Assembly (NCBI RefSeq): GCF_000497125.1
Contig: NC_090603.1
Span: 930,001 to 994,000, forward strand
DNA from: Spironucleus salmonicida
Lineage: Eukaryota
Length of the DNA: 64,000 nt
Direction of reading: 5' to 3'
The position numbers and the translations under genes were made by a program. Positions within the stretch are counted from its first letter, which is position 1. Every line of letters begins with the position of its first letter. Below, piece after piece: positions 9,309 through 49,100 of the stretch. The notes under the pieces were generated by a model. That model ran no database searches and was not told where the DNA came from. It saw nothing but the letters and a program-made list of their open reading frames with translations.

Positions 9309-9338
9309 TTCGTAGAGTGTAGACTTATAACTATTTAA

Positions 9339-10460
9339 ATGCTATCAACAAACTCCAAGCCGCAAATAAAACGATATAATGAGATTTCGATGGTAAAGCA
9401 GAAGAAATCCGTATTTATAGGACTCATACTATTGTTAGCTACTCTAATTGGAGTCGGCGTTGTAGTTGGCTCAGTATTTATTGCTAAACATATACGCAGG
9501 GTTAAAATCCCTACGGAATCTTTAGTTGACGATAACGAATATTTTGGATACCGTAATGCTAAAAAATTTCTAACGGCCTGGTCACCATCATCAAACTCCA
9601 TTATTGCAGGATAGCCAGCGTATAGGTCCCTTCTAACAGACCCAAAATAAATCCAAATTTTGTCAAAATTTGTTGAGAAACACCAGTTTCACTCTCTGTT
9701 CGTTTATGGGGGCTGTGTATAATGGGATTCTCCATCTTGGGTACGGAGCCAAATCCCGTATCAGGAGTCACTGCGGAAGTTCTTTGAGAAGTTTCCCGGA
9801 TAGAAGCCGGGGCTGATGGTATATCTAAATGATATATCATCTAACTTTACAGCATATGAGAATGTCTAGTATTTTGGATAAGCGCTCAACACTTTTAATT
9901 CTAAACAGCTAGGCACGTAAAAGGTATCACAGGTGTATATTTAGCTCAGGCCTCAGGACGAGGGACAAACACTACTGTCCTTAGAGACTGCATATCTATT
10001 GAAGCGCATTGTTGGTGAAACCGTGGAGGTTTTACTCAATATACATTCACAAGTTGTGGGTCAAAGCATTGATAGCGCCTTCAATGTCTATGACCAACTG
10101 TATATAAGCCAACTGCTGGTTGGCGAGCCCAAACCGGTATCGGTTGCAAAGATTTTAGGACTAGCAAGAATATCAGTAATCATTTTTGATTCGTAAATCA
10201 ATGAATTTCAACAACGTGAAGCAGAAGTATCCCTCAAGGCAAGTGGGGTTTCGACAGTATGGTAAATGCTAGATGCCTCTGGTCCTGCATTTGAAGTACG
10301 GGAAGAAACGGTGAAAAATGTTCAGAATATTATTTAGGCAGTCCAAACTCCCACAAACTCCTTTGGGTTCAGCAGCTATCTGGAGTACTTTATAGCATGC
10401 TACGGTATGGAACCTATTGATTCTGATGAGGGGTTCATGATCGACCTTTTTCTACCATGA
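9339..10460 (+). CDS. Single-pass membrane protein, hypothetical, copy B
   Basis: Mirror of 4628-5749; TGA at 10458-10460. Confidence 0.75.
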
Positions 10461-10475
10461 ACAGTGAACATATTG

Positions 10476-12506
10476 TCACTCAAGTATGCTTTTTTCCTCA
10501 CATTGACTAAGTACCCACTCCAGACCACAACTTTTCAGGCTAAATTCTTTTATAATACCACGTTATTTCTCATCTAGCAGCTGGGAAAATAAGCCTTCTG
10601 GCTCTGCACGAAGGATACTACACTGACCGTCGCGCTCCACGGACAGTAGTCCCCCGCAGATAGAATCGACATCACCAATTAGTTTCACTTCACCACCACT
10701 CAGCAAACAAATCTCATCAAAGTACGTCAGCTCATCTGGCAAATGGGAGGTGCATATGATAGTTTTCTACAGGCTTTTAATATAGTTCCAAATTTTTTTA
10801 CGCCCTTTAGGGTCAATACCAGCTGTTGGCTCGTCTAAGATCAAATAATCTGGGTCATTTACAAGAGCAATTTCGAGTTACAGCAAGCGCTTCTACCCAC
10901 CAGAAAAGGTTAAAGTGTTCTAGTTCTACGGGATGTTAAGGTCAATTCCATCCGGTTACTATATCTTGATTTTGAATAAACTGCGGTAAATTTTAATGTG
11001 CTCATCAGCATTTAGAAAATCAAATAGTGATTTATTTTCCTATGAACATACTCCAAATGTACACTTACTATCTATTAATTTCTGGCCGTCTACAAATATC
11101 TCCCCTAAATCTATTTTATGTGCCCTAATAATCGATTTGCAGAGTGTAGTTTTTCCGGACCCATTCTCACCTATAAGACCAAAAATTGAATTCTTCCGTA
11201 TCTACATGGTAATTTCCTTATTTGCTAAGGTATTGCCATAAGATTTTGATACACCGTAAATTAGAATCCCATCTTAAAAGTTGTTCTCCTAAACTTATTG
11301 ATTCGCTAATCGTACATGCTTTAAGATAGTATCCGAGAACTATGATTCTAGAACCTCCTCCGAGACCGCAACACATTAGTTCGTAGCTCTACGTACTGTG
11401 CTTGGGTCTGTAAAAATGACTATTGCAAGGAATACTGCAATCTCTATGAGTTAAATTATGATAGTATAATACAGGTTGAAATTTTCATAAATGAACTCAA
11501 GTGATTTGTTATCATGGTTGTACCCAGCATAAAACATTGCTAATATGACATTATTTAGGGCAACTTATGGCATCAACTGCAGAAGTACAAGCAAGCCTTA
11601 GTTAATTTTGGTACTCTAAAACATCAACACCATAAGCGATATAGTCTGTAATAACGAAACATACTACCCTAATTGGTAGTAGCCAGTAATTGTTTGGGAA
11701 TACTTGCCTAACAAGAGCAAAATGGCGCCGCTCTAAAAGTAATATAATAAACCTACAATGGCCCATATAAGTACATTCACACGTGCAAACTGAGCACCGA
11801 TCACTGATAGAATGGTCATGATGACGCACATGAAAACAAACATTGCTCCAGCTACAAGTACGAGGTGGTAAGTGTGCCATTTAGCCTTACTAGCACCATT
11901 AAGAAGTATAAATTGTGTGCGTCCTTCGAGTTTAGACTTTTGATACTAGTCTAGAAATAGTGTAAGCATATAGTCTAGCACGGTAAAAAATATTGTTAAG
12001 AGCGCAGAGAATGGGGTTAAAGACTGTGCTAGCTTCAGCGACTGGTGTGGTAGCCTTCCAATGCGGATGTTGTGGAAGTCAAGATTCAACGCCTGAATCA
12101 CAGGTAATATGACTTGGTTCTATTACTTCGTCACCACAATACTACCTAAATCATCCAGAGATATTCCATACTGACTCGAACTCTATGTCATGCTAATGAT
12201 AATAGTGTCAGTAGAGGTCGAAGTAGCAGAGAGCACGTTTGCGTTCGGGTGTAGGGCAGTGAAAGAATGTTATTTAGGATCAGAATACACAATGCCATAA
12301 TTCCCCCGTAGGAGCTGGGACGAGTTCTACATAACCTCTGTTGTATCTGTATCGAAAACAGTGCGTAATAGCGGCTATACGAACAATGAGAATATGATAA
12401 TATACAGCAACGCTAAGCTAAATGATATTAAGAACTGTACCACAAAGTAGCGTTGACGGATGAACGATTTTAAGGTGATCTAGAATATCGAACTGAACTC
12501 TCCCAT
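10476..12506 (-). CDS. ABCA-like half transporter, copy B
   Basis: Mirror of 2582-4612. Confidence 0.9.
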
Positions 12507-12565
12507 TCTGGATTTAGAAAATATATACTATAGTGTCCAATGCGTGCCAATTCTACTCCATCTAC

Positions 12566-13252
12566 ATGCTGCCTAACTTCGGCACACGTCAGCTCAACCA
12601 GCTTGAGAGGACACTGAAGGTTCTCTCCACACCGCTCACCAAGCAGCAGCTAGCATACCGTCAGGGGCCACGAGGTACAAAGATTCCATATCTTGAGGTG
12701 TCGCTAGCCATCCAGCAGGCGAACCAGGCCTTCGGGCCCTGCGCATGGAGCTCCGAGATCAAGAATCTCCAGCAGAACTACCTTAAGGAGGACGGCGACC
12801 AGTTCCGCGTGTCCTTCTCCGCGACTGTCCGCGTGTCCCTCGAGAACGGTTGCTTCCATGAGGACATCGGTCAGGGAAACGCCGAGCGTCGCTAGCTCTC
12901 CGAGGCGATCGAGCACGCCCAGAAGGGTGCGGTGTCGGACGCCGTCAAGCGTTGCCTACGGTACTTCGGCGACGGGGTCGGCAACCGCATTCTCAAGGAC
13001 GGCGGCCGGGACTTCAACGTACCTACACCCAGAACCGGCACGATACCATGCATCTCCTTGTCAAACCACTGGTAGATCTAGCTACGAATTTACTTTCTCT
13101 TAAAACCCACTAGATCTAACCCATGCCCCCATTTGCCTCGTTCTAGAGAACATCAGAATCAATCAAAACAGACACCTCCCCGCAAGACACTATATCGCCA
13201 CAGGCAGGCTATAGAGACCTCCTCACCTATCCTTCCTTTAAAAACTCAGTGA
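12566..13252 (+). CDS. RAD52: Rad52/Rad22-family protein, copy B (228 aa, alternative C-terminus)
   Basis: Same Rad52 domain as copy A. One nt is missing at ~13020 relative to copy A, then an unrelated tail runs to CAG-TGA at 13250-13252. Confidence 0.85.
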
Positions 13253-26242: not shown

Positions 26243-29200
26243 TCACTCTAAGCATACAATAATGTTATTCATGACCTCATTAGATCTACAATCAAAAATT
26301 ACACCAAAACAACTCAAATAACATGTATGAGAGAATTCGAATGGTATTTCCATAGTTATCTTTACATACACAAGTTATTAACCACAAATAGCACGTTTTC
26401 CACCTTCGAAACTTTAGAAGCTAGCAATTAAGAATACGCCTTCCCCGAACAGTGAATCAACAGAAAAATCGACATCTTGCTATATGTTAATACCTTTAAA
26501 TGTTTTATTTTATAAACACTCCACCGTATATTAACTAACGACTTATAGATTACCAAATAAATCCATTTTCTGAATTCTTTCCATCATCATCAGAGTGTTA
26601 AACTCACTTATTCGGGTAGTAGTAACCTTTTAGTTATTGAAATTCTTCAAACTATCTTATATTTTACCAGCATGGAACTTACTGCTATTACGCAAAAATG
26701 CTGTAACTAGTGTGAAAATCCCATCTGAAAATGGTCGGAAGTAACTAAATTACATAGCGGCCTATAATGGTAATCGAATAGCAGAAAACTATTAAATAAA
26801 ACTAATTGGATTGAATGAATTAGAGATTTCAATCAGATTTAGCGAGTCTGGGAGCTATTACGCTAAAAATTATAAGAGCTAGGCAACTGAGTCATTTACT
26901 TACTCCAGTTCGACCGAGTTAATAGAAATCAAGAATTGGAAACGAGCAATTAATGCCTGGATAATTTCAAAAATAGGAGCAAAATGTAAATTTAAGGATG
27001 AAATTTCTTATGCCAAAATAAAACCTGAAATATATAAAATCTAGTAAAGCTCGTAAAGGTTATTTTACGTCTATTAAAATAATGGATGTGATGGTAAAGG
27101 CTACGAAATTTATGCATTGTTGGTAATAAAATTAGAGAAAGTAAAAAATATCTTCTATTGTTTAAAGGCTGCATAGTTATGAATTGAATCAAAGTCAGCC
27201 AGAGTATAACTCATGTTATAAACTACATTTAGTACTTGTGAATTAACAAGGTTAGGATGAACTTCAATTATAAAAATGACATTTTAAAACGTGTTATACT
27301 TAAGTGCTTATTAAAATGAAAATTCCTAAAATTAAAATGAATAAAGACGGATTATAGTTGGCTTAACAAAAACGGAGGAATAATTTTGCAATGAGTATAA
27401 GTGATCAAACTAATATGAGTGTAATTTCCCTAAATATAGTAACTCTTAAAGTGCTCGTGAAAAACTTAAAGTTTAAAATATAAGAGGACCTCTGGAAATC
27501 TATTTTTGTATAAAATCAATTTCTTATTTGGCATTCATATTTTGACAATCGCTAAACAAATATGGATAATTAAAAATAAGCTTTAAAAATATTTATATAT
27601 CATCGTGTAGAGATTATTTTGAATAAATAAGTGCTAAGCAAAATAAATAAATACCAGAAACTGGGGTTCCATCTTTAATAAATTGCGGAATAGATGTTTT
27701 CTAACTAGATAATACATATTCAATAATATTTTATTGTTTCATAGCAAAGTCGAAATCGTTTTTATAAGAAAGCATCCAGGTGGTAATTTCTTCTATAAAA
27801 GCATGAGGATACTTTGAAAATACTTCTTAAATATTAGCCTACGTTTTATTAAACTTACACTAAATTAATTCCAATAAGAGACTGTAACCTTCTTAAGGTA
27901 ATCTTTAAAATGTTTTTTCTATTACAACTACTATCATAAATACAACCATTTCTATATCTGATAGACTAAGAACATTGGATATAATAAAGATAACGTTTTT
28001 AAGTATCTACTGATACAGAATAGATGTATTATATTATAAACTATCCGAGGACATTTTGAAAATTTAATCTATGTTAAGAGACTTAATAAGCATTGGGAAG
28101 CGTGGTGTTAACTTTACTAACATATTTTAAATGCTGAAGAATGCTTTATAGTAGATATTTAGCCATGAATCTTTTTATTAAATCTTCTTAGTAAATTTTG
28201 CTTAAAATTCTTAATATTAAGAGGTAAGTGTTCTCTTTTACTGTATACTTTATTCTAAATTAGAAATATGTTGCTGTAAATTCTAAAATTACGTCGTTGG
28301 TGCATCAAAACCTATATTTTTGCAGTTAATGACTATATTCTATATTAAAATATAATATTAAGACTCTTGATGTTTTGTATCATATACATTTGATAAATAC
28401 TATGTTATATCTTAATAATGAATATATTTCCATATTATAAATGAAAGTTATTCTTTTAATACAGCCATAGATTATTAATAATAGTTATCTTGAATATCCA
28501 TAGTAAATAATTCATTGGCAAATTTTAAGTTCTAATTACTTAAATAAATTTAAGGATAATTAAACAAATTATAAAAACCATACTACAATGGATAATTATC
28601 ATCTAATTTTTAGAAAATTACATATAAATTAATAGTTGTCATTTATGGATTTACTTTTCGTCTTTCTTTCCCAATATTAACAATCTAAGTATATCCTGTT
28701 TTTATAGCGTAATTATATTATACTAGTCCTATAAATATATCGATTAATGCGGGTGATGACTTAGTTACATTAAATACTATATATGGCGCTTATTCTTTAC
28801 TAAATACTAAATTCTCCACAATTTACATTGCTTAATGATAATTATCATTAAACTCTACAATATATTAATTATTTAAATGCGGAATTTATTCAATAATACT
28901 AATTATTTATTTATAAAATATGTGTGATACAATTGATATTTTATAAGGGAATGCTTATCTTAATATAATTTATTATTATAATTCTAATAACTGCACTTAT
29001 CCCATAGCTAATAGTTTATCATAAGTTTACTTCTTTAATAATGTTTACTGATTTAAGGAGTTCATTAATTAATATAATTTATCTCTAGATGCTATCATTT
29101 CTGAAGTTTAATACGAAGGTGCTTACTTATTTAATTTAATAACCGTACCATTATCATCTAAATCATTCAAGCACACACACAGACAGTGACAATTATAACA

Positions 29201-32200
29201 TGAATTACATAACTCATCTTTATTATACTAGCAAAATTTACAAGTATTTTAAATAACAGGACATAAAATGTTCAAGATTTCCTTCAGCATGTCACCACCA
29301 TAAAGAATATAAGCAGCTAAACCGATAGAAGTAAAATCAATTAGATTAATACCCATCTACACTTATTATATATCATAAACGATATCATTTTATTGTTATA
29401 AGAAGAAACTATAAATCTTCGATGCAATATTAACACTATTTGATTATATTTTAACTTAATCTGATATTTAATCATATTTTTAATTGAATTAGTCTATTTG
29501 TCTCTGGTTTTCTAAAATTTTTGCCTTAATTGAAAATTATTCTTATTCTTTAAGATATGTTCGTTTTGACTCTAGCTCGATGATCGTTTGCTGTAACTAA
29601 GTAATAACTATTTCTTATTGAGGGTCAATCATATTTGAGAAATAAATATTGAGAGCAAGGACATAATTTACTAATCTTCTCTACAATCGTGTTTATGTAA
29701 ATGATAAAAGTTCTGATTCTAACTCTTACATTGAACAAACCTTACGTATTAACTCGATCTTTGTATCTGTTAGCTACTTATAATCAAAATTAATTATCCC
29801 GTGTGGAATTGCTATATCTACAAACATTTATTATTATATCTCTTTCCATTATTATGCAGATTCTTATTCTGTAGGATACTTTAAATCAGAAACAAATAAC
29901 GTATTTTTATCAAAAATAATGTTCCAAATAACTAAAAATACAAAAATCATAACATTATTCGTAATATTAGAATTATATAAGTCAATTATTTCTGACTTAG
30001 AAGTTTATTCCATTTCAATTATAGTATACGATAACATAGAGATTTGATTCTTTCTCTGCTTATCTAGTTATTATTATAACTATACTAGTTCAGATTATTT
30101 AAGTGATATGGAACTTAATACTGCTTTAAATTCACTTTAAAGATCATTATTAATTTTTAATAAAGTAATTTATGTCTATTTTAATTAATCTAATACGATT
30201 TTTTCATTACTTTAACTCTCTTAATATTATGCTAAGCTTTTTTCTGCCTATTTACAAACGCTTATGACACCTATTAATTTAGCTTAAAAATCAGATAAAA
30301 TTTTATGCTTACTATTTTCTTTATTTATTAAATTTTGTTTAATTGATTAAGACAACTGAAATAAAACACTAAAGTTCTACTCATTATGCTATTATAAATT
30401 TGAGTATAAGTTTAATGCCAATTAGTGATGGCGTAACTCGTCTGATTACGAAATAAAATCTGGTAGCAGCCTTTGTTTTACAGTATCAATTAGATCTTTA
30501 TTAGAATTTTATTCTAAAAGTTAAATAAAATTATCTTATTCTATTTTAATATCATTGGTATATGACTGTAAATTAACATAATTAATAAATGGTGGTAGAT
30601 TCTTTAAATCATAGCTTACATCCTAGATAATATAGATCATTAATTTTTATGACATAAGTAATTATACGGTTGCAAAATTTAAATTTTCAAGTTTACTAAA
30701 CACAATAGCCTCCTGATACATATCTTAAAACTCACTAGATGTAAATATTTATTATCCTTAGTTACCTGGAGTAATTAAATTTAATACTACAGATAACATA
30801 TTTGTTGATAGTAATATACTAAGTGGGAATGTTAATATGACATAATTGTAATTTTCTTTTTTTAATGCGGGCCTAAAAGCATCGAAATTTTGTATTTAAG
30901 GAGGTTACGTTATTTAAAATTATTATTATGACATTGTAGGTACATAATCTATAGCAGTTTAACCAAATAAACCATATTATGATTAGATTTATGTAACAGG
31001 TTATTAAAACATCATTTAATCATCTGTAAATTGCATTTTAAATTATTCTAACCCAGCAGCAAGACCAGATTGATAGCTTTTCTTATTTTCTAGTTTATTC
31101 TTAGATGATAAAGGAATAACGACACCTCTTTAAAGATGAAGCGTTGTATTAAGAGCAGTTCGTATGCAAGATAGAATTTTTTCTCGGGTGTTTAGCTATA
31201 ATATACTTGAATTTATGTAATTTTATTGGTATGACTAATAAATACCACTTACATCACCAACATCTATTAACATGTTCTTGCTAATTATTTTATCCTATTC
31301 AACTGGTAAATCTGTAATAGAATTTGTTATGACACTTATATATTAAACAATCTATTAGTAAGAAAATAAAGTTTAAAATTTAACGAAATGCGTAGGAATA
31401 GTAATCTCTAATACTGGAGATGAAGCCAAACTTAATAAACATCCATATCCTTAAGCCTCTTCTATAATACCGTCATTAAACTCAAATAAGGAGTTTGGGT
31501 CGTTTTTATATTTATCATAATTCTCTTAAAGAGATTCTTTGTATTCTCCTCTAGCAGCATCTCTAATGCATCCAAATAAAACTCTGTTATAATATGTTTA
31601 GTACAATCCAACATTAAATGAATGCGATAATTGCTTTAATGCTAATGTTTTAAACTAAGAAACGTCAATTAAATTAATCATCGCTGATATATCCCAGAAC
31701 AAAGCCAATTCTTCTTTAAGTGATCCCTAATATGTTGAATAGAATTAGTTTACTTTTTAAATCTCATTGGTACTTTACTGTTACTATGTAAATAAGTAAT
31801 TAATATTATCTACTAGCAGATCTTCATCCAAACCGAATTTTATAAATAAAAACTTATGCGCATTAAGATGAAATTATGAAGCATTTAAATCAGTTTTATG
31901 CTATGGTTTTTCGAAATCACATTAGAATAATGGATATTTATATTTTTTGTTAAATTTCGCAAGTTTTTAAGGTTATTAGAACATGATAATAAAACTACAG
32001 TTTAATAACCTATAGTGTTTAATCGTGCCAGTTTAATCAGGTATTTATATCTAGTAGGTAAGTAATGTTTAGAACCATGCAGATTCAAATATTTCCATAC
32101 TAACATAAAATTTAATTATTGTAAAGAACAACATAACTGCATTATTTCCCAATAATGTCAAAAATTCTCTTATTTATTAAATGAAATAACTAATTTCCAT

Positions 32201-35200
32201 TTAATCTGCAATAACAAATGATTGATACCGATATTCTAAGAGATGCCTATTCTAATTTACATTTTGCATGTTAGAAAATGAACGTAACGAAGCATTTAAT
32301 TACATAATACATCCTTTCAATATTTTTTCACAATTTGATGAACTTTTGTTACTTTGTAAAACTTAAGGAATTGAAAGCTTAATTGCTGAAAAAGATTAAA
32401 ATAACACCATTCTATATTATGGGTTACTATACTCAAACTATTCTCCAAATGTTCTCATAAAATATTAAATTCTTGATTCGTTGACGTTAGCACCCGTTAA
32501 AAATATATCTGATTTCTCTTCTGTTGTAGTGTTTAAAATATTATTGAAGGGTAACATAGATTATATTAGCTTAGGCTGGTTTAAAAGGGTATCTGCTAAC
32601 TTACCTAAAGAAAATAATTGCAATTACCCTCTGAAAATATGCAATTCTTGATAACTTGTATTTAACATACCTTAATATAATGGTAAATAAACCATATAAA
32701 TATTACTAAAATTAATAGAATTTTATGCTTTTTACTATGCAGGTAATGGTAAACTGGATGAAATAGTATTAATATAATCCGAGTATTCAATTTAAAAATT
32801 AATCAATGCATTATTTAAAACCGTAACATACATTTAAGGACACATTCTATATAACTAAATACATTAATAGGCTAATTAATAATTCGAATCCATTTATTGA
32901 ACTATTTGCTCATTTGATAAGTCTTAATCTTTAACATTAACAAAATAACACTAAAATCCAGCAAAAATAATCGAAAACATAAATACAGTTATATTTCCAA
33001 ATGCTACTCCTATATTTGAACCAGATGAATATACAATCTAAGTCAAAAATTCATCAGAAATTTCATAGTAATAATTTTAAAATAAGTATGATTTTGCTGT
33101 GAGTGATTCCCTTAAATCTAAAAATCCATATTATTGGAACAAAATAGTAGCATTTGCCATGACTTATCTAATAGCAAATATCTCCGTGATCTAAAACATT
33201 TAACTACAAAAATCAAATAATTCTTAAAATAGAACGACTATAAATTTTGTTGACTATTGTTAAATATGTCTAAGCTATCTACTAATATTGAATTTGGTAA
33301 ATATTTAATCAAATTCAGTTTAAGTTAATGATTTTTTATCTAATACACTAATATCATCTGAAAGTATTTACTAAAATTTCATAGTACTTGTAAAGTCATT
33401 AAATAAGTATCTTAATGAAATAATATTTTCAACTACTACTTAATAGTATTGACAATATAATTGTAATAAATCAATACAGTCTGAAATAACCAATACAATG
33501 GCATCAAAAGGTTTAGGTGTTACTAAAAATTCTTAAATCATGGATTTATATTCGAAGAAATCATCTTATGAGCCATTTTGATAAATAATTACATAAAACA
33601 TTCCCGGTAGAATTTATAGTATGTTATCTGAAGAAAAACTAAAATCCTATGAGCCATTTATAACTTAAACAGGAATACCAATTTAGTTTGACGATATCTC
33701 AAAAATACAATCTAAAAGTTATTAAACAGCTATAGAATTATATTGTTAGAAATATAAACCAATTTGATCTATTCTAGCAGAAAATAGTAACAAAATTATG
33801 TCAGCTACATATTTCCACCCTTGCGAATTCAAACATGTTTTTTGTCTTAAATATTATGAAATATACACAAAACTAGATAATTATTAGGGTATTTTAGATA
33901 CAATTAAATCTTCTTTGACTATAATTTCATTCTCCACGTTCTAAAATAATATTTCTGGTTGAATATCAAAAAATCGATACAAGAATTAATCACAACTACT
34001 AATTTTTTTATTGATATCTGCATCAAAGAAATCAGACTATAAATATGATCCCATTGTTTCTTTCATTGTAGATACAATTTAATTTAGTTTACTAGTTTAA
34101 AATTTATTTTATTACGCTACAATATAACAAAATTAAAGAACTGCTTGCTCAATTGGTTAAGATGATGAAAACAAAAAACGTGCAATTTACTATGGTATGA
34201 ATAAAGAGTTAGTAATTGAGAGCTTCTTGTAAAGTAACTCATATTCACATTATTAAAAATAGAGTTCTTAAAATCTAAATATATTATCTCCATTAACATC
34301 CAATCCTGAAAATTAGAGAGTATTTTTACACTAAATAGTCATAACACATTGATCTGTACTTGTTTATACTAATTCTGGTAGAATATACACAAAATTAGCT
34401 CCTGACTTTTCGGCTTGTACTTTTATAGATTATAGTTTGCTCAATATATCTAAACTAGCTAATTCTAAACCAGTTATGAGAATGATTACTCCTGTAGCTG
34501 CTAAACTACTTATCACATCAAGTGCATATGAAGATATAATATGAACATGTTCGACTTTACGCTATAGAAAGTTGGATATAATATCTATAAAAAGGCAATA
34601 TGTTAAATGGTAATAATATTTATCTGTGACGGGAGTGATACACGCAACTTAAGTTTAAATATTCATTTATTCTAATATTTTAGAGATATACTTCTATAAA
34701 ATCATCTATGTAATTCTTAATATTTAAGGACTATACAAACTAGCTACTTTAATAAATCCATGAGATTATTATATATACCCACCATTTACAAATATATCAA
34801 TTTTTGGTTAATACTTCATTACAACTTCTACCTTTTAATTTTAATATACAGAGTTTTTTGTTTCGTTAATTTATTTTCTTAATGCAAAAACTAGCTAATC
34901 TAAAGGCTTATTACAGTAGGGAATAACAAAATCTAACCAAACCGAATTAGCTTAGAAAGAAGATAAAAACGAATCTAGAAGAGAAATAAAATATATAATA
35001 CTTTACGTCTATTCTGGCCCTATACCTTAAGATGCACGTAGCATTGCTAAAATAATAAAATCTTCCGCATTAAACCCATCATGTAAAAAGTCACGCTATT
35101 TGTTGTCTTACGACTGAGCCTCACTATCTCCAAATAAATCATCATCCAATTCGCTATCAGATTAAGACTCATCAGAATCCAAGTCATTTAGCATATCAAA

Positions 35201-38200
35201 AAGTCCTTCTTACTATACAGTATCTTGTTTAACAATGTTAGACTTTTTCTATTGATTTAAATTCTATTGTCTTTAAAACTATTAACCTACTGGGTATGAC
35301 TATAAAGTTGATGATAAATCAAAGAATAAATAATTTTCAAAAGAAGTAAGCATTGACAATTAAGCTTGTCTTAATGCAATATTGATATCGAATTCATAAA
35401 CCTTTTCTTCTGGGTTACACTCTTATTCATAAAGTACTTTAAATTACTGTAATGCATGTTATAAAAACTGTATTTAATTATCTTTTTTATAGTTAAACGA
35501 AAGTATATTCTTAAATATGTGCATAATTACCTAAGAGCAAATATGAAATGAAATATTTGATGGATAAGAGATTAAAATTTACTAAATATTAAAATCATAC
35601 GTTGAATTAATTTTTTACTACCAATATAACATATGAGTTTCAAGAGTAGCTAATACAACTTTTTATAATACTGGTGTAGTAAGATTAATATAGATATCTC
35701 TTAAAGATCTATAAATTAGAGGATATGCAAACTTAAAATAAGTTGCATTAGACTGTATAATTCCATCTATATAATAACATCCATATGGCGTACCTCCTTC
35801 AGTTTTTGCCAAGAAATACAAGATATTGAACATAGAATCAGGAAACCCTAATTAAGTTAATAAAGTACACAAAGTAAGATTAACATCATCTGTTAATTAG
35901 GTCACAATTGCTGCTTTACCAGCATATTTAGATTTTTCTAATAATGGGGTCGAATGAGAATCATACCACATTAAGTCTAACAGATATGTTATTTGTAAAT
36001 CTTTAGGGTAAAATTTTCTTATTCTATAAAATGCATTTTAAATTTTAGTTTAACCGCGAAATATATCATAGACTTAATACACAGTTTCCCATAGTTTATC
36101 ACGTACAAATTTTCTCTATGACAATTGAACCGCATTAGATGCTGTTGTGTAACAACCTGTTAATAATCCTCTTAACTATTTAATTGCTTGGCTAAACCCT
36201 TCTTATTGTTCTTATGATAATGGATTTAGTTATATATTAACTGGTTATCCCTCTTAGTTTAATTCTAATGCAACCTCATTTAACAGTTAAACCCAACCAC
36301 CATAAGTGTAAATTTACCAATGCAAGGACACCATTTAATTTAAGGAATCTGATGAATTTATAAGCTACTAGGCTTAATACGTAGTAATTTAATTTTAAAA
36401 TAAGCTTTCAATAATTGTAGTCTTCTGAATATTCAAAAATGCTAATAATTCATTTTCTAATTCACAACCAATAATATTTGATCTAACTGTGCTAATTATT
36501 TTCTGATTGAAGAATTAGTTATTATAATAATCTTTATAGTATACAACCGTATAATTTTCTTTGACTTTCATATTATTAGGGCCTAAAATAAGAAAATCAT
36601 TCAAATCTCTTTTTAATTTTGGTGTTTCATTTGATTGCATAGACGGTAATATGAACTAAGTCTCAAGAATACTATCTAAGTTACCTTCAGCAATAATTTT
36701 ATTAATCTAGGTTTATTAATATGCTATTAATTTATCTGATCTAATCTTGAAAAGGGAGTGACAAGTATTTAAATATATAAAATCGTCATATGGTTTTAAT
36801 ACATCTAGCATATCACTAGTTCTTACATCGTCTGAAATTTTAAGATTTAGTGACTAAATAATAATATTAATAAGTGTTGCACTTACACTAAAATCTTTAG
36901 AATCAATTTTAAGTAGCTCGTCAATTTTATGTCGCTAAACAATTTCTTTAGAAGAATGCTGAATAGTTGAGACATTATTTTCGTATATAGCAGTTTTTGT
37001 TAAAAATATTAAGTAGAAAATATTATGTTGGTCTTATAAAAATTACAATAAGTTTAATGCCACTGTTACAATCTTAATATTTTGAGTAAAATTAACAATA
37101 ACTAAGGTAGAAACCTTGATGGCTTCAATAAGTTACCTTTTAATTTCTTCTAAGTTAACCATGGATAACGCTTAATCTAACCATTACGAAAAACTATTTT
37201 AAATATTATTACAAGTAAAAACTAATCTAGATGCTAACTAGAATACTGGTTATAGCGAACAAAGTCGTGATAATTATGTAGAATTTGTTTGGTTTACATT
37301 ATTTGATAAAATAACTTCCAGTGTTTCTTTATTTAAAGTAACTATATCTCCTTTATTCTTTAGTTGCTAAATATAAGAATCTTTTTTAGCCTATGTAACA
37401 AATAGTATCTTATCAATAGTATCAAAAAACTGTATATCTGTGTTACCTAGTAGCTATAGTTTTAAATTATTAAGTAACATTAATGTTTAAATAGAGTAAT
37501 TTATAATTTCCTCGGCTTCTTAAAACGCATCGTTTAAATTTTCTTCTTTAAATAAGATGGTTCTCTCAAAAATATGAATTTTAATATGATTAGATTTAAA
37601 TATTGGCAGCATTGACGTTTACTCTATTTCTTTAATCAACCTCTTAGTGTCAATAAGCTAAAATTCATCTAATTTTAATGGCTTAGGATAAATTATACTT
37701 TAAGTTAGTAAGGGGTATTTTTACTTAAAAACTTATTATTAGTTACTACACTATATCCAATCGGTATAACAAATAGAAAAATACTCCTTTGTCCTACCAA
37801 ATACATCTATAATTAATAAATCAAACCAATTTTGTACATTCTATAAAAATGTAAAACATTACTAATATGCCAAGCTAACCCTATTCGTGACTAAACTCTA
37901 ACTAGTAAATACTTATTTGAATTTTTTCTAACTGGCTATCAGCTAAGTATGCATAATATTATAATATGTATTACTTATATTCCCAATAGGTATTTCTTCA
38001 TACACCTCTAATATATCGTTCATTTGACCATATAATTCAAGCCATTTATCTTTATTATATGTAAACAACTTGCAAATTTCGTAAATTTCGCCTATTTCTT
38101 ACGTAGACGTAAAAGAAGTCTAGTTTAACTTTTCATTTACCTTATCCAAGCAATTATTGCATATTTCTAATACTAAGACGAAATAATCTGATAATCGGTT

Positions 38201-41200
38201 GCTATAAAGATCAAATAATATTTTATCTTGAATCTACAATGATTATAATAAAGACGTCAGGGAAATTTTAAAACTACTGTAGTAACAGATATTTGGCAAT
38301 GATAAAATCATAAAAGTGTTATCATAAACAATTTTCATGGTCTCCAAAAGCTTGTTAATCTGTTGATTTATAAGCATTTAGCAGGTTTCTGGAGGTGCTT
38401 AACCAGATTGAAACTCCTCTATTACCAAATCAACAAGTCCTTTGTTGCGTAAAAAATCACTAAAGGGCTTTAACTTTAGTTTAATTTACTCCTCCTAGGT
38501 TCCAGTTATTTTCACCATTTTTTAATTTTATGAAATACTTTCAACTTGATATTCATAATCTGAATGTTTCTGAACAATTTCTGGCATTAAATCTACCTTT
38601 TTATTTAGAAATTAAATATGAATTTATGATTTTTGGATGTGTAAAGTGAAATATCTGACAAAGATTTCAAAATACTTAGTTACTTTCTCAGCAGATACTT
38701 TGCTTAGCTTTACAAGCTTTTAGAGCAAAATAGATGGTTCATAGTAGATTGCTTCAGCAAGTTTTGTTTCAATTTTTATATCAAACTCAAATTCTTCATC
38801 TGCTTGCTCATTGAGCTCAACCTTGTTGCCTACAATTGTAATGAATTTCTACTTCGAATGCGAATTTGCAGCCTTTCCATCGGGTTTAATAAATCCTAAA
38901 TTAAAAGGATTACCTTGGGAGCCACCCTAAAGTGGAATATTATTATAAGCAACTTCTAAATATGCTTTGTAAGAGAGATTTTATTTGTCTAAGAATAATT
39001 CTCGCTCGTTCAAAGTTAGCTAATTTTAAACAATACCACTTTTGCAGTTGTAAATAAGAATGTCAGAGAATTTTGGCGAGGATGAATAGAACATTGAAAG
39101 CTATGATATACAGGATTCTAGGTTCTATGCAATTGACAGAGGGTCTGGACAGATTTTGATACCAGAAACAAAATTATCTGTCATTTCTGGAAGGGCTTTG
39201 AACTCCCATTTTGAGAGGCATTCAAGTGTTTTAGATGCTATTTCCTTGTTAATAGGAATCTTGAAATCTGAGTATTTATTTAATGAGTCTATATCTTTCT
39301 AGATTGATGACATAAAACTTTGCTCATTTGGTGTCAAATGTAAGATTTTTGTCAGTTCAGATTTGCTCTATAAGTTGATTGGTTAGATTTAACTAGTGGA
39401 TTTTTTCTTATTTCCCCCATGAATAAGTGCTAATAAGAAGTAAAACCATTCAGGTAGTGCATTTTCGTATAGCTCATTAATGAAAATTCTGAAAAATTAG
39501 ATTTCCATTATTTTGAATATTTAAACGTATTTCGAATGAGTAGACTAATAACTCTCTTCAGCGAATTTATCTCGCATTTCAAGTGACGGTGACCGCCCGT
39601 GAGATGATTAATAATTATGAAGCCTGAAATTCAAATTTTCCAAAACTGAATTTGCAAAATCTGAAATAATCTAATCTACTATATGTGGGCTCAAAATTTG
39701 ATAAATAACTTTATGTGTATTGATTAGTTTCTCCGAAAATGTATCCTTAAATGACAAAATTGAATAGTCATTGTTACGCACTTTGGCTCTCAAAAAGAAT
39801 TACTCAATACCTTTATACGAAAAATGTTAAATAAAGCTCTCTGATACTCTAACACTGATTTCAGGTAAAGTTCCCGTCCATAGGATATCAATAAAATGTG
39901 TTGCTCTGGCCATAATGTCATTTTTGTGCTAATCAAAGATTGTTGCTATATAATGCTATAAAGTAACGAACTGCTTACTAAACAAGTTGTTTATATGCTT
40001 CTCGATTTTTACCTATGCTTTCCTAAACTGTTTTTTATGCTCATCGTAAATATGTAAATTATCTGCTCCCGGCTCGTCTATTCCAAAGCAATACTGGCTA
40101 ATTTTCTTTACTTAGAATATCTTATGTGAACTCCATAAGAATAAAACCAGAAAATCTGCACACCAATGCAATTAATGCTACTCGTCATTATATGCCTTCT
40201 GCATTATTTACATCTGCGCATCTGTCAACTAGGCGTGCTGTACAAATTCACTACAAACCTAATCGCATATATCTTAAAAATTAAATATAATACTGTTTTA
40301 GTTCAGCTATTAGAAATTGATCCCTTATATCACCTAATTGCACAAAATTACTGCAGCAGATAAATTTTATTGTAATGAATTTGCCAAGTTTAACGGAACG
40401 TGATACGCATTTTTAGAGCGCAAATCTGCTTGATTTCGTACTAAAATCGCACGCTAATTTTCTGAATAGTTGGCGGGAATCGTCATATCGTGAAGACGAT
40501 TTTAGCGCAATGTCACAACTGCATATTCCGTGAAATCATCAGTTTGCTAGAACTGTTACCTTGTTATATCAATAGCTAAATTGCCAAAATCCTGAATAGC
40601 CTGCTCAAACTTCGCTTTCAGCTTCGTATTCTGGAGCTGCTGGTTAAATATTTTAATAAGGTATTCTTGGGAGGCATTTGACTAGCAATATTAGGAGATG
40701 AACTGCTGGATGTTGATAAGCGACGTCTATGTCTTGTACTGTCCGAACTCGTCCACGTTGTTCTCGTCATCTACTAGAAGCACCACGTCCTGGAAGATGA
40801 TATTTGAAGTAGAAACTACTTTGTTGAAGTTATTCTCCGAGATGAAAACGAGGAACTTGTCGTCGTCAATTTTCTTCAGAACGTCACAAGGGACCCATTT
40901 GAGGTTCTTTCGGTCCGAAATATCCGTCCAGTACTACGTAAAGCCAGATCCTGAGTTTATATCTGTACGCTGGTCAGTAATTGTATCCAATACCTAGTCG
41001 ACCATGTTTACAACTGCTACGAAATTTTCGCCTTTCTTATAGGGCGCAAGTTCTACTGGAATTAACTTGATTGCAATTCCCACGTCAAAAGCTTTACTTG
41101 ATAATTTGTCGCCCGATTGAAATGTTTCCTGGACCATTTTTGGCGGCTTTGGTGCATCCGGGATATCCTAAATTTATGGTATCGTGTAGGATTACTTTGT

Positions 41201-41308
41201 TGAGCTTTGCAGCGGTTTTGGAGTAGTAGTGCGCGATGATTACCGCTTTGAGAGAAGTTCTTTAGCAGCAGGTAGATTTTCTAATTACTTTGGTACATTT
41301 ATCTTCAT
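26243..41308 (-). CDS. Highly divergent dynein heavy chain (5021 aa), probably axonemal-type
   Basis: No in-frame TGA found over 15066 nt in a manual scan. Dynein landmarks occur in order: WVPCDVLK..DKFLV, SDMLDVL, QMVSLHWQIY, YAGKAAIVTQLTDD, ITIPTHFV, IDFTSIGL, GFDAPT, DSWLNI, FTLVTAFLRN, GEGVFL. Ends GAG-TGA. Confidence 0.8.
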
Positions 41309-41422
41309 TGTGAAGAGTTAAAAAATTATTTTTAGTGAAAATTATATGTGAAATGGTATAATAACATGATCGGTATTTATACAGTATATATATATATTAA
41401 TAATTAACTGTAAAAATTTTTA

Positions 41423-42426
41423 ATGCTACCTCAAATAAACAAGATCAAATTCGTACATTAAAAGATAATATTAAAAAATCAACAATAGAATATGTTTAAA
41501 TAATAGATAACACCTAGAATAAGTCCTATTTTTAATAATTAAAATGATATTATTTTATTAAAAATATAAATGATGCACAACTAAATTTAAGCTCTGTTTA
41601 CACAATAAACCTAATTTTCTGTAAATCCAATTAATTTTATAATAAATAATAAGGCACATTTTTAAAAGTTTACGTCATTAGATCTGTAATTTGATGAATA
41701 CGAAAAATTTTAACTTCCATAATAATTTTTTTGCAGAGAAATTTGCGATATATTCATTAATATAAATTATCTAAATATATCTTCGACTCCACTTATACCT
41801 ATAATTCCACCATTTCAAAATTTTCCACTTCTTGAATAATTGATTCTTCACAACTGTTAGCTTCAAAATATTCGTTTTTTAGAAAAGTTAAATGACTTAA
41901 AGGTATTAAATTTGTCAGATAATATTATAACTGATTTTAGACCAATTTTGGCATAAAGGAGTTTAATGCATTAAACATATCTAACTGCTAAGTTAAAGAG
42001 ACTGATTTTTTATCTAAACTGACAAACTTGAAATACTTAGATATCTCCAATAATAAGAAACTATCTTAGCTTACCGGATTATTAAAAATTGTTAAAAATC
42101 TTCATACATTGAATATGTCAAGATCTATCTTATCACCATTGTGGTTTTGTATGATTTTAAATGAAAATAGGAATTCTGAAAAAATTATGATTGATACTGA
42201 TTTTAACAGTTTTAAATTCATAAGAAATCGTCTTTTAAAACATATGAAAGTAAATGTATTAGATTGGAAATCTTAGAGTATAAATTAGTCGGATTCATTG
42301 TATCTTTTTGCAATATATAAACGGTTTAATGTGATGTATGAAAGTATCCAGTAACTGCGGCTTGCGAATGATATACGATTTGCAGAAGGAATGTTTTTCT
42401 TAAAGATATTGGAAGGTATTTATTGA
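41423..42426 (+). pseudogene. Leucine-rich repeat protein interrupted by a 1-nt frameshift
   Basis: LRR units LEQLILHNCQL and LKVLNLSDNII in frame 2 continue as ALNISNCQV and LKYLDISNN in frame 1 after ~41966. Pseudogene or sequencing indel. Confidence 0.7.
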
Positions 42427-43333: not shown

Positions 43334-44806
43334 TCACTTTTGACTTTTGTCTTTATTTTTACGTTTACTGCTAGAATTAGTTTTTGCAGCATCCTTATAC
43401 ACAAAAAGAAATTTAATAATAAATAAAATTAATAACATAGTGCTAATACAGACACCTACACCTTCTGTTAGTGATAGTGAATAATAATAATTAGCGGTAT
43501 CACCATTATTTCTAGATGTGCTCAAAATAGTTATCAAGGCCATAATTAGCTTAAATACCGCAAGCATATAGTTTAAAGTGAAGAAACTCTCAAAGGAACT
43601 TAGAATAGAAACTATTTCTGGGATAATAGATGTGCTTCCAGCTACACAGGATAAAAACAAATTCTTAACTTAACTGCTGCTATATTCGGAATCTTTATCA
43701 GTCGAGAAGATGAACTACACATGAAATTACACAAAACATATCAATATTATTGCATTAACAGCAACTGATACAATAACCACAGTTAGAATTAATTTGCAAA
43801 CACGCTTGTAGTACCGTTGCTTATAGTGTAGAGCCGCAGCCGAAAAGAAGCAATAGCTCAGGGCAGTGGGAACGACTCTAAAAAACTATCCATAAAGTGA
43901 GAAGGAAAACAAGTCGTAAATAGCATCTTATCGTTATGAATCGTTTGTATATGTCTTAAAAATTTAAGCATGTGAAAGTAATACGGACATTGGAAGAACT
44001 ATTAAATAACACGTTCTAGGAAGTCCAAAACGAAGCATCTATATTAAGATAGAAATTTATTTTTTGTCACGAAACCCTTTAAATATCGCCATAAGATCCG
44101 AATTAAAATAATTTCGTATAGTAACACCAAGCAACGACCGACCTTCATTGATACCAGCCATCCAAACACCCAAAGAGAATTCAGTAACAACAAATGCTAC
44201 AACTGTGGGCCAATTATTAACTGGGACATCAGCAATGAAGTATAACATGGATTCTACAGCAACTCGAACAAGAGCACTGATACATAGATGACAAAATGTT
44301 ATGAAGGTTCTTCCTTCTGCTGTAAATTTTATTATGTTAACATTACTTAAAACATTGAAAGCATATGAGCAGCCAACTTATACTACGATTGAATAATAAT
44401 ACGATTTTGCTACCCCAAAAATAGTTTATGTGTACACAGCTATTAGAGAATTGACTATAAGAAACACAGGTAGAAGGAGGTAATATAGATAGAATAGAGA
44501 ATGATAGTATGCCTTCATTTCTTCATAATTTTTGCTGGCAATGAAGTCGGCAGCATGTAACGCATAACTGAACATTAACTGATTTGGTAGAGTTTATCCT
44601 AAGATTAATTTTAAATTATATGTCACATTTATAGCGTAAATACAGTCCTATCCAAAGTTAATTTGTTAAAAGTAGAAAGAGACTAGATCTGCAACTGCCA
44701 ATAGTAGCATTCCAAGAAACATTGGAAAACACTATTCTACTACAATCCATAAAATATTAGTACTAAGGATACGTACTGAATGCGCTGATAATTCAGATAG
44801 ATCCAT
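43334..44806 (-). CDS. MATE/MOP-like multi-pass transporter, 490 aa
   Basis: About 12 hydrophobic segments; IVVEQCFPMFLGML and FTAEGRTF resemble MATE motifs. Joins track ORFs 44057-44248 and 43334-43660; ends AAG-TGA. Confidence 0.65.
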
Positions 44807-44920
44807 TTTATCGAACAAGACTATATGTTATATTAATTTAAATAAAACATATAATTTGCTATTTATTTTTTATGTAATTTAATAGAATTGAACCAATAAT
44901 AAAAAACACTACGAATACAT

Positions 44921-45433
44921 TCATGCGAAGAAGCTCTTGAGCCAGTAGAGATCCGCCTGGAAAACAAACTTCCTCAGCCGCTAATATGCGAATTCCTGGC
45001 GCTTTATGAGAGTGAGGTTAGTGCGTAGGTGCACCTCGCTATCCACCAGGATGCTTTGAGCGAGAAACTGCGGCAGAGACGTCTGGATCTCGAACGAGGT
45101 CTCTTTGCACCCAGCCCATGTCTGGTCTGGGATTTTCACGGATCCTTCCGCAGTGACAAGCTGGATTCCGTCATAACCGTCAGAGAGCAGCAGTGAAGTG
45201 CTCTGGGAAACGATACGCGGTGATTAAATCTAGGGAGCCGTAGTATCTAGGATCTCCAGCTGATGTGCAGCCCTGACCTGCTGGAGCAACGTGCGCGCAC
45301 CTTCCGAGAACAGAGCCAGCTGCGCAGTTTGATAAGCAATGCAGTACTCTAAGTCCCACGACTCAGATGTTCCGCTGCATAGGATATCCAGAATCTCCGC
45401 CGTGAGATCACTGGCGATCGCGTTTGCTTCCAT
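44921..45433 (-). CDS. Hypothetical protein, 170 aa
   Basis: Extends track ORF 45230-45433 through TAR codons to TGA 44923-44921; GC-rich codons. Confidence 0.65.
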
Positions 45434-45475
45434 TCTTGAGAATATGTAGTAATATATAATAGTTTCCCTGGTTTA

Positions 45476-47446
45476 ATGGCACTATACGTCAGCTCGTCAG
45501 AACACGAGTACAGGGCCCTGGGTGTTCCGCTAGCGCGATACAGTGCCGAGACTACTAAACTGGTCTAGCTCATGCGTTAGCCTCTGTCCAGAAGTTCGTG
45601 CGTGCAGATCGCCGATTTAGTGAGCGCACTCGGCGTAACCCTGATCTCGGCGCTCGATATTGACCCGGTATCCATGCAGATAATATCCAGTTACTGCATG
45701 TGCGCGTGCTTCCCGTGCCAAGTGGTGCACCAGGCCCTGGAGCGGTATGGGCATCGAGACTTCTCCTTGGTGATCGAGGAGCGTGCAGATATCTTCCTGT
45801 TCCACGTAGCCAACGGGGTTATAACTAAATCTACCAGCTTCGATAATACGCGTAGCGAGATTCGGACCCTTCTTAAAACCATCGCACATAGCGTAACGCG
45901 GTATGTCGTAGTGGAAGGAAGGGCTCCTGCAGTTCGGAAGTATCTGTAGGAGCATATCGAAGCTCTGAATGAAAAGTAGATTCTGGATCTCACGGCTGAC
46001 TGGGCCATGGCATCCCAGGTAGCTACGGAATGCGATAGAGTCAAGATATTGCTCAGCGGGCAGCCAGTTGACGCTAGATAGTTTATTGTGCTGGCAGGAG
46101 CTGACGTACGGATACAGAAGGGTGCCTTCTCGGCAGTCATAAACTGCTAGCCCGGGGATATGATAATGCAGTCCGGTTGCACGTACTTCAACCACACGCG
46201 GAAGGCACCGCTGGAGTACATCGACACATATGATTCTTCATCGGTCCTAAACCTCCATACCCACCAATTCAGCATGCCTTTTGCATTCTAGGACGAGCAG
46301 CTGCACGCCTTTATCCACCGGGCGCTTGACATGTTTGTTCTGGTGCAAGGTATCCCGTTAGATCTAGCAGACAGCCTGCGGCGCTCAAGCTCGTGCATCG
46401 TGGAGGACATGATCGTCTTTGAATCATGCCAGACTTACTCAGACGGCGTGTTCACCCTCTACGGTATCTACGACAATTCTCTTGTAGGAGTTGACTGCGT
46501 CGCCACGGTGGAGGGGAGCCTTTTCTAGTTTCTACGAGATTTTCGCATCCAGAACATGGAGGGCCTCCCCTTCCTGCACGTTCACAAAGCTGTGGCCTAC
46601 GGCGGGTTCACGCTGTTCGCCCGGCAGGCAACAGTAGAGACCTTGCAGGAATATTCCTGTCACAGCGAGCGGGCGCTGGTACTGCATGATCTGGTCCAGA
46701 AGCTAGCGTTGCTACGACAGTACGGCGTTACCTTTGCCAACCTGTCTGCTAGGAACGTCCTGGTCACACCTAGTGGCAGTATGCTATTTAACCAGTTCGC
46801 ACTGGAGCCTGGCCCAGAGGACGTGACCGTACGCCAGCTAGGGAAAATTGCCCAGGTGATGCTCGAGTTCCATCCTAGGGGCTTCTCCCGCCACGAGATA
46901 TTACCGCACGCAACTTACCTCCAGAAGCAGTTCCTTATGCAGGCAGACCTGCCCAGTATCCGGCTGGAGGATCTGCTCGCAAACCCCCTGTTCATGTCTG
47001 ACGACTAAAAGGCCCAACTGATGGAGCAGTACCAGAGGTCCAAGGCTGGGTCCTGCCGCTACTTCGAGCGTCTCACTGTCGAGCTCGGCATCGACCCGGT
47101 AGGAATTGTGTGTGGTCTGAAGGAATTCACCCAGACTGGACGCAATGGGGCACATGGTATGGCCGGCGGTGGGGTAGACAACGCGATGCGGTTCGTACGG
47201 AACCAGCTTGCCCACTTCAGCGGCCGCCACGAATACACCTTCAGGCGGAAGCCCGTGCAGTTTTCGGCACCAGGAGAGCTGCTGCGCTTCCTGGAGACTC
47301 GAGTCGGAGGAATATTCCAGGTCGTGTACGACTGCTACCTGCTCGAGCGGTACGGTATGGAGCTGTTCCGCAGGCACAGTGAGGGAAAGCAGTCAGATCT
47401 GGGCAAGCCTCTTCGCTCTGGTAATGAGGGCAACCGTCTGGTCTGA
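45476..47446 (+). CDS. IRE1/RNase L-family pseudokinase + KEN ribonuclease protein, 656 aa
   Basis: Track ORFs 45602, 46331, 46556 and 47021 form one frame with TAR=Q. Kinase-like part: GVFTLYGIYDNSLVGVD, FARQATVETLQEY, VTFANLSARNVLV, LEDLLANPLF. KEN part: VDNAMRFVRNQLAHF, PGELLRFLETRVGGIFQVVY. Confidence 0.78.
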
Positions 47447-47656
47447 GTCGGTGCCATCGTGATCTGAAATCGGCTCCTGGGATGGGTCGAGCACCGGGAC
47501 GCCGCGCACGAGCGGCTCGCGGGAGATCGCGTACTCCTACCTCGCTGGAAGCTTTGGAGTACGAATAGCAGTTAGGGCATCACTGCTAACTATCGGCTGG
47601 GAGTCGGCCATGATCGCGGAGACCCGCTGCGCGAATGCGTGTCCAGAGGCGTTCAT
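47393..47656 (-). CDS. Small hypothetical protein, 87 aa
   Basis: MNASGHAFAQRVSAIMAD...AKRLAQI-TGA. Overlaps the 3' end of the KEN gene by 54 nt; divergent from the 47680 gene with a 23-nt gap. Confidence 0.4.
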
Positions 47657-47679
47657 TCGGATTTTGGAGCGGCCCCAGA

Positions 47680-47937
47680 ATGAGCAGGAAGGCCCCCGCA
47701 TCAACCTACGCGAAGCCCAACTCGCACTTCGGTCGCTTCCTGCTGGACACCTATCGTACGTATGATCTGGATGCGGTGCGCGATGACTCCGACAGTGAGG
47801 TCGCACTAGCGATGGCTATACCATTGGAGCGCCTTCACTAGCACGAGACCATAGTGCGGCGGCTTGGCCCCAGAGGAAAGGTTGTTCCGTGCTCACCCTT
47901 TGCCTGTATACGCTGGCTGGATCGAGTGCTTGAGTGA
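47680..47937 (+). CDS. Small hypothetical protein, 85 aa
   Basis: MSRKAPASTYAKPN...WLDRVLE; ends GAG-TGA, 17 nt before the next ATG. Confidence 0.5.
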
Positions 47938-47954
47938 CGTCTTCTCCACTCCAA

Positions 47955-49100
47955 ATGCCAGAGGTCCTAGTGATGGAGATCGGCACCAAGGACCCGGCCA
48001 CCTCAGATTTCGTATCGCGCCTGCTCTTTAACTTCCAGGTGATGGACGACAATAAGGCAGCTTAGCAGCGCAAGCTGGTTGGCCGGGTACAGCCGTTCGT
48101 GACCGAGGCCGAGTACGACTTCACGCGGCCATACTTTGAGAACCTCCTACTTATCCAGAGGAATGACGGCAAAGAGCCATAGGCGAACTCCCCTATGCTG
48201 TATCGGCACTACTCGGTCTAGACTGCACCGTTCGGCTGCCAGCACTACCTTCGCGCATGCGAGGTGGTCTGCCCCCAGTGTACCGCCCCGTATCCCTGCC
48301 GCTTCTGCCACGACGAAGAGCAGGACCACGAGCTACCCTTCCGCGAGGTAGCCCGGGTGGTGTGCTGCAGCTGCCAGCTTGAGCAAGACCTGCACCAGGT
48401 CTGCGATGGATGCGGATAGGTCTTTGGGGACTACTACTGCGAGAAATGCGCCCTCTTCGACAGCCTCGGCAACCAGGCCAAACCCATTTTCCACTCCGGC
48501 AGTCTCTGCAGAGTCGGGGTGGCCGCGTACTACCGGGACTGTACACTCTGCGGTCAGTGTATTCTCCGAGAGTGCTTTGATTCCCACGTATGCAAGCAAG
48601 AGGACACTTGCCCAGTCTGTCTGGGAACCCTCCGTGACTCCATCTACCTAAAATCTGACCTGCCATGCGGCCACCAGCTGCACCAGCACTGCCTCCAGGG
48701 GTGCTACGACGACGGCAACTACTCCTGCCCGATCTGCAGAAAGAGCACATTTACATCTTAAGATTTGTTGTAGTTTAAAAATGAATGGATTAGATGGTCT
48801 GGTAAGTAAAAAGTACCATTTATACTTAAAAACAAATATTGTATAGTAACTTGTAACGATTGTAATAATTAGTTTTATGAAAAATGTGTGCATTATGGTT
48901 ATTTATGCCCCAAATGTGATAGTACAAATACGTTTGAAAAAGAGTTTTGTACTAAAGCAATATTTATTTCTAATAATAATAATAAAATTAATAGAAAAAT
49001 TCAATATAATTATTTCATATTTTTTACACATATAATAGTAGATAAAAAAGTTTTCGCCTTAATTTTAGTAGTTTTAATATTTTTGATAAATTTGAAGTGA
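47955..49100 (+). CDS. RCHY1: CHY zinc finger + RING-H2 + zinc-ribbon E3 ligase (Pirh2/RCHY1-like), 381 aa
   Basis: GCQHYLRACEVVCPQC...YPCRFCHDE, YYCEKCALFD, CPVCLGTL...LPCGHQLHQHC...CPICRKS, VTCNDC...CPKCDSTNT. Confidence 0.92.

Follow-up and report, generated by a model that had tools for sequence, protein, structure and literature searches.

A possible ASKHA-like unit in the fast-evolving N-terminal region of a putative pseudokinase-KEN protein from Spironucleus salmonicida

The question raised by the gene at positions 45476..47446 (+ strand) of a 64,000-nucleotide stretch of Spironucleus salmonicida DNA (contig NC_090603.1, positions 930,001 to 994,000; hereafter the window) is whether it encodes an Hsp70-like domain fused to a nuclease of the IRE1/RNase L type. 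A preliminary description of the locus had regarded the product as a KEN protein and had pointed to a weak similarity of its N-terminus to a degenerate Hsp70/actin-fold module, which could serve as a sensor built in in cis. In the sequence comparisons described below the Hsp70 ancestry of the N-terminal region is unsupported, and so is the idea of an Hsp70 or BiP acting in cis. The explanation tentatively put forward here is a motif-stripped unit resembling the ASKHA (actin/Hsp70/sugar-kinase) ATPases, which may serve for sensing or self-association, without catalysis, ahead of a putative pseudokinase-KEN nuclease. After the tests the protein stands as uncharacterised and lineage-restricted, and its fold assignment as plausible but unproven.

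The open reading frame (ORF) consists of 656 codons followed by a TGA stop. It was read with NCBI translation table 6 (TAA and TAG as Gln), nine such codons lying inside it, because under the bacterial code (table 11) the same interval gives a set of broken frames. The start proposed previously was confirmed: a single table 6 frame runs from 45476, and an in-frame TGA can be read 39 nt upstream of the ATG. The product (labelled P0001) and UniRef entry V6LLR2, an 'Uncharacterized protein' of S. salmonicida, are identical (100%) from end to end, and the residue numbering of V6LLR2 used throughout is that of this translation. The protein is presumably soluble; by eye, neither a signal peptide nor a membrane segment is obvious in it. 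A Pfam search detects no domain in V6LLR2, and an NCBIfam search gave nothing relevant.

When 1.84 billion cluster representatives were searched exhaustively with phmmer (E ≤ 0.001), three proteins in total were returned, namely V6LLR2 itself, a 733-residue protein of Hexamita inflata (P0004, E = 1.9e-20) and a 318-residue fragment (P0005, E = 2.9e-15). P0004 is accompanied by two near-identical paralogues (P0007 and P0008) and a 158-residue fragment (P0006). The search reached no Giardia protein and nothing beyond Spironucleus and Hexamita-type sequences; among the diplomonads proposed earlier for an orthologue check, Hexamita supplied a counterpart of the C-terminal part in this search and Giardia supplied none. 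Word-indexed homology searches with V6LLR2, with Hexamita residues 1–404 and with a KEN profile against longer proteins found only the query itself or the known Hexamita relative. In a scan of metagenome contigs with the family alignment 343 stretches matched the pattern, none of which was confirmed by tblastn. The family is restricted to Hexamitinae (Spironucleus and Hexamita-type sequences). Since both P0004 and P0005 align to residues ~295–625 only, residues 1–295 (45476..46360, + strand) have no detectable sequence relative. When V6LLR2 was compared with the Hexamita N-terminus by BLASTP, no high-scoring segment pair inside these residues did better than E = 0.79, and local alignment of V6LLR2 with the same Hexamita region gave z = 0.9, a score equalled by 54 of 300 shuffles. 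Most likely, residues 1–295 form a very fast-evolving region.

Proposed Hsp70 resemblance of the N-terminal region

The proposed relation to Hsp70 was based on short strings which were said to follow segments of the Hsp70 nucleotide-binding domain (NBD) in the same order. All four strings are present in the table 6 translation: LGVTLISALDIDPVSMQIISSYC at residues 52–74, VVHQALERYGHRDFSLVIEERADIFLFHVANG at residues 82–113, SVTRYVVVEGRAPAVRKYLQEHI at residues 139–161 (with Q158 encoded by TAG) and LDLTADWAMASQVA at residues 170–183. Their order was compared with chance by a chain test, in which six hallmark segments of E. coli DnaK (phosphate-1 loop, ITVPAYF strand, AYG helix, DLGGGT phosphate-2, VGG adenosine strand and NPDEAVA helix) are placed ungapped and in collinear order, and the highest-scoring chain is determined on residues 1–300 and on shuffles of the sequence. 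The test chose positions 53, 86, 141 and 173 of V6LLR2, i.e. the very segments picked by eye. The order is therefore reproducible, but it is no better than chance: the chain score is 41 against 44.8±10.6 for the shuffles (z = −0.36), with 187 of 300 shuffles scoring equal or higher. For the Hexamita N-terminus z is 0.00 (142 of 300 shuffles as high). The control proteins MreB and FtsA reach z values of 8.45 and 6.07, scores attained by 0 of 100 shuffles in each case. The likeness to the NBD of DnaK or BiP is confined to the order in which these four short segments, each of weak similarity, occur, and is what chance would give for a sequence of such composition. None of the nucleotide-binding motifs (phosphate 1, phosphate 2, adenosine) stands above chance in residues 1–300 in the chain test; the strands expected to bear them read DFSLVIEERAD and RYVVVEGRAP in V6LLR2. 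Because the hallmark segments match no better than in shuffles, the region is unlikely to sense nucleotides in the manner of Hsp70.

Alignment and profile comparisons agree with this result. Smith-Waterman alignment with the E. coli DnaK NBD gave z = 0.27 (97 of 300 shuffles as high), and BLASTP was flat as well. At E ≤ 10 Pfam reported no HSP70 (PF00012), MreB, actin, FtsA, ROK or Ppx family for V6LLR2, for residues 1–300 and 1–360, for P0004 or for P0007. A PDB sequence search with V6LLR2 returned nothing related to Hsp70, and PDB sequence and profile searches with V6LLR2, the family profiles and P0005 gave chance-level matches only (viral capsid protein, titin and Pelota; E 0.56–1.8). In hhalign comparisons with a profile of DnaK, HscA, HscC and YegD the probability was 0.29% for V6LLR2 and 0.06% for the Hexamita protein; after addition of MreB and FtsA to the profile it did not exceed 0.31%, the scores lying within the range of 22 shuffled queries. 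The best match of V6LLR2 comprises 11 columns (residues 265–275) and falls outside the mapping suggested before. In global mode 5–23 columns were aligned, no checked position (those of the four segments included) was among them, and no collinear alignment was obtained. As positive controls the single sequences of MreB and FtsA were recovered at 99.0% (E = 4e-18) and 96.5% (E = 1e-9). Profile similarity to Hsp70, the absence of which the preliminary description itself had named as decisive, was found neither by Pfam nor by hhalign.

It is very improbable, accordingly to these comparisons, that the region is a degenerate NBD of Hsp70 descent, placed in cis to the pseudokinase-KEN part as a sensor of proteotoxic stress or of nucleotides. 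The reproducible order of the segments is what such descent would have in its favour. Against it stand the missing HSP70 match, the null chain tests of both orthologues and the hhalign probabilities, which stay at the bottom of the scale while MreB and FtsA, which are only remotely related to Hsp70, come close to its top. The region is also short, with 295 residues compared to the 385-residue DnaK NBD used here, and several other ASKHA proteins outrank every Hsp70 in the structural comparisons that follow.

Predicted fold of the N-terminal region

The AlphaFold models of the region are poor, because there is no alignment depth for it: residues 1–300 of V6LLR2 have a mean predicted local distance difference test score (pLDDT) of 36.5 and a predicted template modelling score (pTM) of 0.29, and Hexamita residues 1–404 have 34.7 and 0.22, respectively. 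The only stretch of V6LLR2 over pLDDT 50 is formed by residues ~80–160 (helix, three strands, helix, strand, helix); residues 1–75 are modelled as helices with pLDDT below 50. In this low-confidence model a helix followed by a β-β-β-α-β-α unit, i.e. an RNase H-like motif, is predicted at residues ~76–180 (45701..46015, + strand), and in structure it is matched best by ASKHA ATPases, in their second subdomain. Foldseek with the V6LLR2 model found no match in the PDB at E ≤ 0.001. Among the 44 weak rows listed (E 0.011–0.079), 21 are ASKHA proteins (Mlc/ROK, Ppx/GppA, YeaZ, BT_3980, AlfA, PilM, ParM and Hsp70/BiP/DnaK), 18 are RNase H-like nucleases and 5 are others. In a second, Z-scored list of neighbours the ASKHA targets are always matched in the second subdomain plus the preceding inter-domain helix, and type III pantothenate kinase (PanK), ParM, FtsA and MreB rank over every Hsp70. 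The remaining rows of that list comprise 10 RNase H-like nucleases, 5 proteins of the Pelota/Dom34/Balon group, 5 aminopeptidase-P N-domains and 3 others.

A public language-model structure of Hexamita P0004, likewise poor (pLDDT 0.37, pTM 0.23), leans in the same direction. For its residues 1–404 eight of the ten nearest clusters are of the MreB/PilM/MamK/Hsp70 type (TM-score 0.31–0.36 by query, all under the tool's bar), residues ~2–288 being the part aligned to the MreB-type clusters. As an internal control, residues 405–733 of the same model gave ten scattered families, none of them actin-like and none a kinase or KEN domain. The AlphaFold2 model of the Hexamita protein showed no MreB-type signal with VIA, and a feature-based structure search yielded no usable match for either half of P0004.

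The same superfamily lean from two predictors and two orthologues, together with the clean control, may be taken as a real hint of an actin-like fold in these models. In terms of architecture, the N-terminal core (~76–180) would fold as a single RNase H-like β-β-β-α-β-α unit after a helix, which is the arrangement of the second ASKHA subdomain, devoid here of phosphate-binding and adenosine motifs. Several points weigh against it. Each individual fold score is below threshold. Unlike the small ASKHA proteins (type III pantothenate kinase/Baf, ParM, AlfA, MreB and FtsA), V6LLR2 has no sequence or profile similarity to the group, its matches to the glycine-rich hallmarks are at the shuffle level, and no first subdomain is evident in the model; the structural scores against their second subdomain are within the noise range of the tool. 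Of the Hsp70/actin-fold module suggested earlier, the weak ASKHA-like lean of poor models is retained and the similarity to Hsp70 is not.

About equally likely as the ASKHA-like unit is a chance resemblance. The region would then be lineage-specific and fast-evolving, with disorder in parts or with a different, perhaps novel, α/β fold that has nothing to do with ASKHA or actin-like ATPases, and both the Hsp70 motifs and the ASKHA neighbours would be artefacts of the common β-β-β-α-β-α pattern in low-confidence models. The sub-threshold scores are compatible with such an artefact. It accounts less readily for two predictors arriving at one superfamily from two orthologues without detectable mutual similarity in this region, for a control half of the P0004 model that yields no consistent family, and for ASKHA targets being matched always in one and the same subdomain together with its preceding inter-domain helix.

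The RNase H-like nucleases in both lists point to another alternative, in which the unit belongs with the nucleases, as a YqgF/RuvX-, integrase- or RNase H-like domain, and is not one half of an ASKHA module; the protein would then possess two nucleic-acid-processing modules. This is improbable. The nuclease rows align from about residue 92 and omit the helix 72–91 that the ASKHA rows include, and there is no match to a Pfam nuclease family. They also rank below the best ASKHA rows, but within ~1 Z unit, which amounts to a tie.

Conserved C-terminal half and proposed architecture

Residues 295–640 are conserved across three lineages, represented by V6LLR2, Hexamita P0004 and P0005. The first part of this half, residues 295–510 (46358..47005, + strand), is kinase-like by eye (FANLSARNVLV..FNQFALEPGP) and is conserved with both relatives; N422, L423, N427, T431, F438, Q440, F441, P445, G446 and P447 are invariant in the family alignment. 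FANLSARN and NQF presumably occupy the positions of the kinase catalytic and DFG motifs. If these residues do form a kinase fold, the catalytic Asp appears to be missing. The second part, residues 511–640 (47006..47395, + strand), is a probable KEN-like (Ribonuc_2-5A-like) helical domain. It harbors an RNxxxH motif (R575-N576-Q-L-A-H580; 47198..47215, + strand, codons read directly), which we take to be the catalytic motif of IRE1 and RNase L and which is invariant in all five aligned sequences, the invariant columns here being R575, N576, A579, H580 and F581. The invariant features of the whole half can be written as NL..xN...T, F.QF.L.PGP, RN..AHF, GEL and FQVVYD.

The Pfam family Ribonuc_2-5A (PF06479; cut-off 23.3 bits) matches both relatives below threshold: P0005 with 18.1 bits (E = 0.0031, profile positions 38–113 of 127) and P0004 with 15.8 bits (E = 0.016, positions 52–116). 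It does not match residues 505–656 of V6LLR2. No Pkinase or related family was found at E ≤ 10 in V6LLR2, its residues 295–510, P0004, P0005 or P0007, and no IRE1 or RNase L chain was reached by the PDB sequence and profile searches. For these reasons the pseudokinase-KEN label is not established, but it is quite plausible. The KEN assignment, made already in the preliminary description, is based here on the sub-threshold matches of the relatives, V6LLR2 itself giving no PF06479 match. Both this assignment and that of the RNase H-like/ASKHA-like unit are weakly indicated.

P0005 residues 214–295 (homologous to window positions ~47000–47300) repeatedly show weak sequence matches to archaeal Pelota (3j15_A), in its C-terminal domain, with E = 0.56 for P0005 by itself and 1.7 for the family profile, and Pelota central domains are also found among the structural neighbours of the V6LLR2 N-terminal model. 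Probably, this resemblance is a coincidence.

In the proposed architecture V6LLR2 would consist of three parts: the fast-evolving N-terminal region (1–295), a degenerate kinase-like region (295–510) and a KEN-like helical domain with RNxxxH (511–640). RNase L is built of ankyrin repeats, a pseudokinase and a KEN domain, and IRE1 of a luminal sensor, a transmembrane segment, a kinase and a KEN domain. By analogy with the ankyrin sensor of the former and the luminal sensor of the latter, we infer that the N-terminal module could be a non-catalytic sensor or self-association module controlling the dimerisation, and hence the activity, of a C-terminal nuclease; the RNase activity of V6LLR2 is itself inferred. 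By our reading V6LLR2 is soluble like RNase L and combines, as RNase L does, an N-terminal module outside the membrane with a dead kinase-like region and a C-terminal helical RNxxxH domain; its relatives also give sub-threshold matches to Ribonuc_2-5A. It differs from RNase L by the absence of ankyrin repeats or any other Pfam domain, by an unrelated N-terminal module, by a family found only in Spironucleus and Hexamita-type sequences and by the failure of PDB searches to reach an RNase L chain. With IRE1 it would share the kinase-like and KEN-like tandem at the C-terminus with a conserved RNxxxH, by the equivalence assumed above. Unlike IRE1, it shows by eye neither a signal peptide nor a luminal domain or membrane segment, and its catalytic-loop Asp is replaced (FANLSARN, by the same assumed mapping).

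A more far-reaching reading, in which the protein is a cytosolic analogue of RNase L/IRE1 with a complete but motif-less actin-like (ASKHA) sensor fused in cis to the pseudokinase-KEN nuclease, is rather doubtful. Such a complete module would govern nuclease dimerisation via ligand binding or actin-like self-association. We know of no description of an ASKHA module combined with pseudokinase-KEN, and an ASKHA-derived sensor, if true, would be a new way of gating a KEN nuclease. If the C-terminal half is indeed pseudokinase-KEN, the effector would have, besides the ankyrin and luminal domains, a third type of sensor in this N-terminal module, and an RNase L/IRE1-related effector would be present in the Spironucleus/Hexamita diplomonads. 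In the Giardia kinome paper (PMC3218828) IRE is among the kinase families not found in excavates. In a survey of the unfolded protein response Ire1 was not found in the protozoan parasites examined (PMC3084755). The literature searched contained no paper on V6LLR2 or on KEN-type proteins of diplomonads.

Surroundings of the gene in the window

A divergent 170-codon ORF (44921..45433, − strand) starts 42 nt upstream of the V6LLR2 gene and has no Pfam family at E ≤ 0.01. The other neighbours, a CHY/RING zinc-finger protein, an ADA2-like ZZ protein and a 528-residue ORF, are unrelated to the gene; the last of them is hydrophobic by eye and without a Pfam match. The GC (guanine plus cytosine) content is strongly mosaic: comparing 44001–49000 with its flanks, the V6LLR2 ORF lies in a 2-kb bin of 57% GC, and bins a few kb away have 23–32%. 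By eye, high GC extends to the adjacent 170-codon gene and, in the CHY/RING gene, to the 5' part. This mosaic suggests two gene classes of very different composition.

Contigs of four sequencing runs from one study span the whole V6LLR2 ORF at ≥99% and without joints, their ends lying at 44921, 44923 or 44941 and at 47927 or 47967. The kind of these runs is guessed (RNA, possibly DNA), and the contigs count neither for nor against expression. They differ from the window at four positions inside the ORF (46812, 47187, 47344 and 47350). The change of G to T at 46812, present in two of the four runs, would by codon reading replace Gly446 by Val within the family-invariant PGP motif.

Farther away, the window holds a perfect (100%) inverted repeat at 2068–6523 and 8565–13020, with arms of 4,456 nt and a spacer of 2,041 nt, each arm carrying one 676-codon and one 430-codon ORF (table 6). 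Either a recent inverted duplication or an artefact of assembly might account for it. Positions 26243–41659 (− strand) are occupied by a single table 6 ORF of 5,138 codons, in which 421 TAA/TAG codons are read as Gln.
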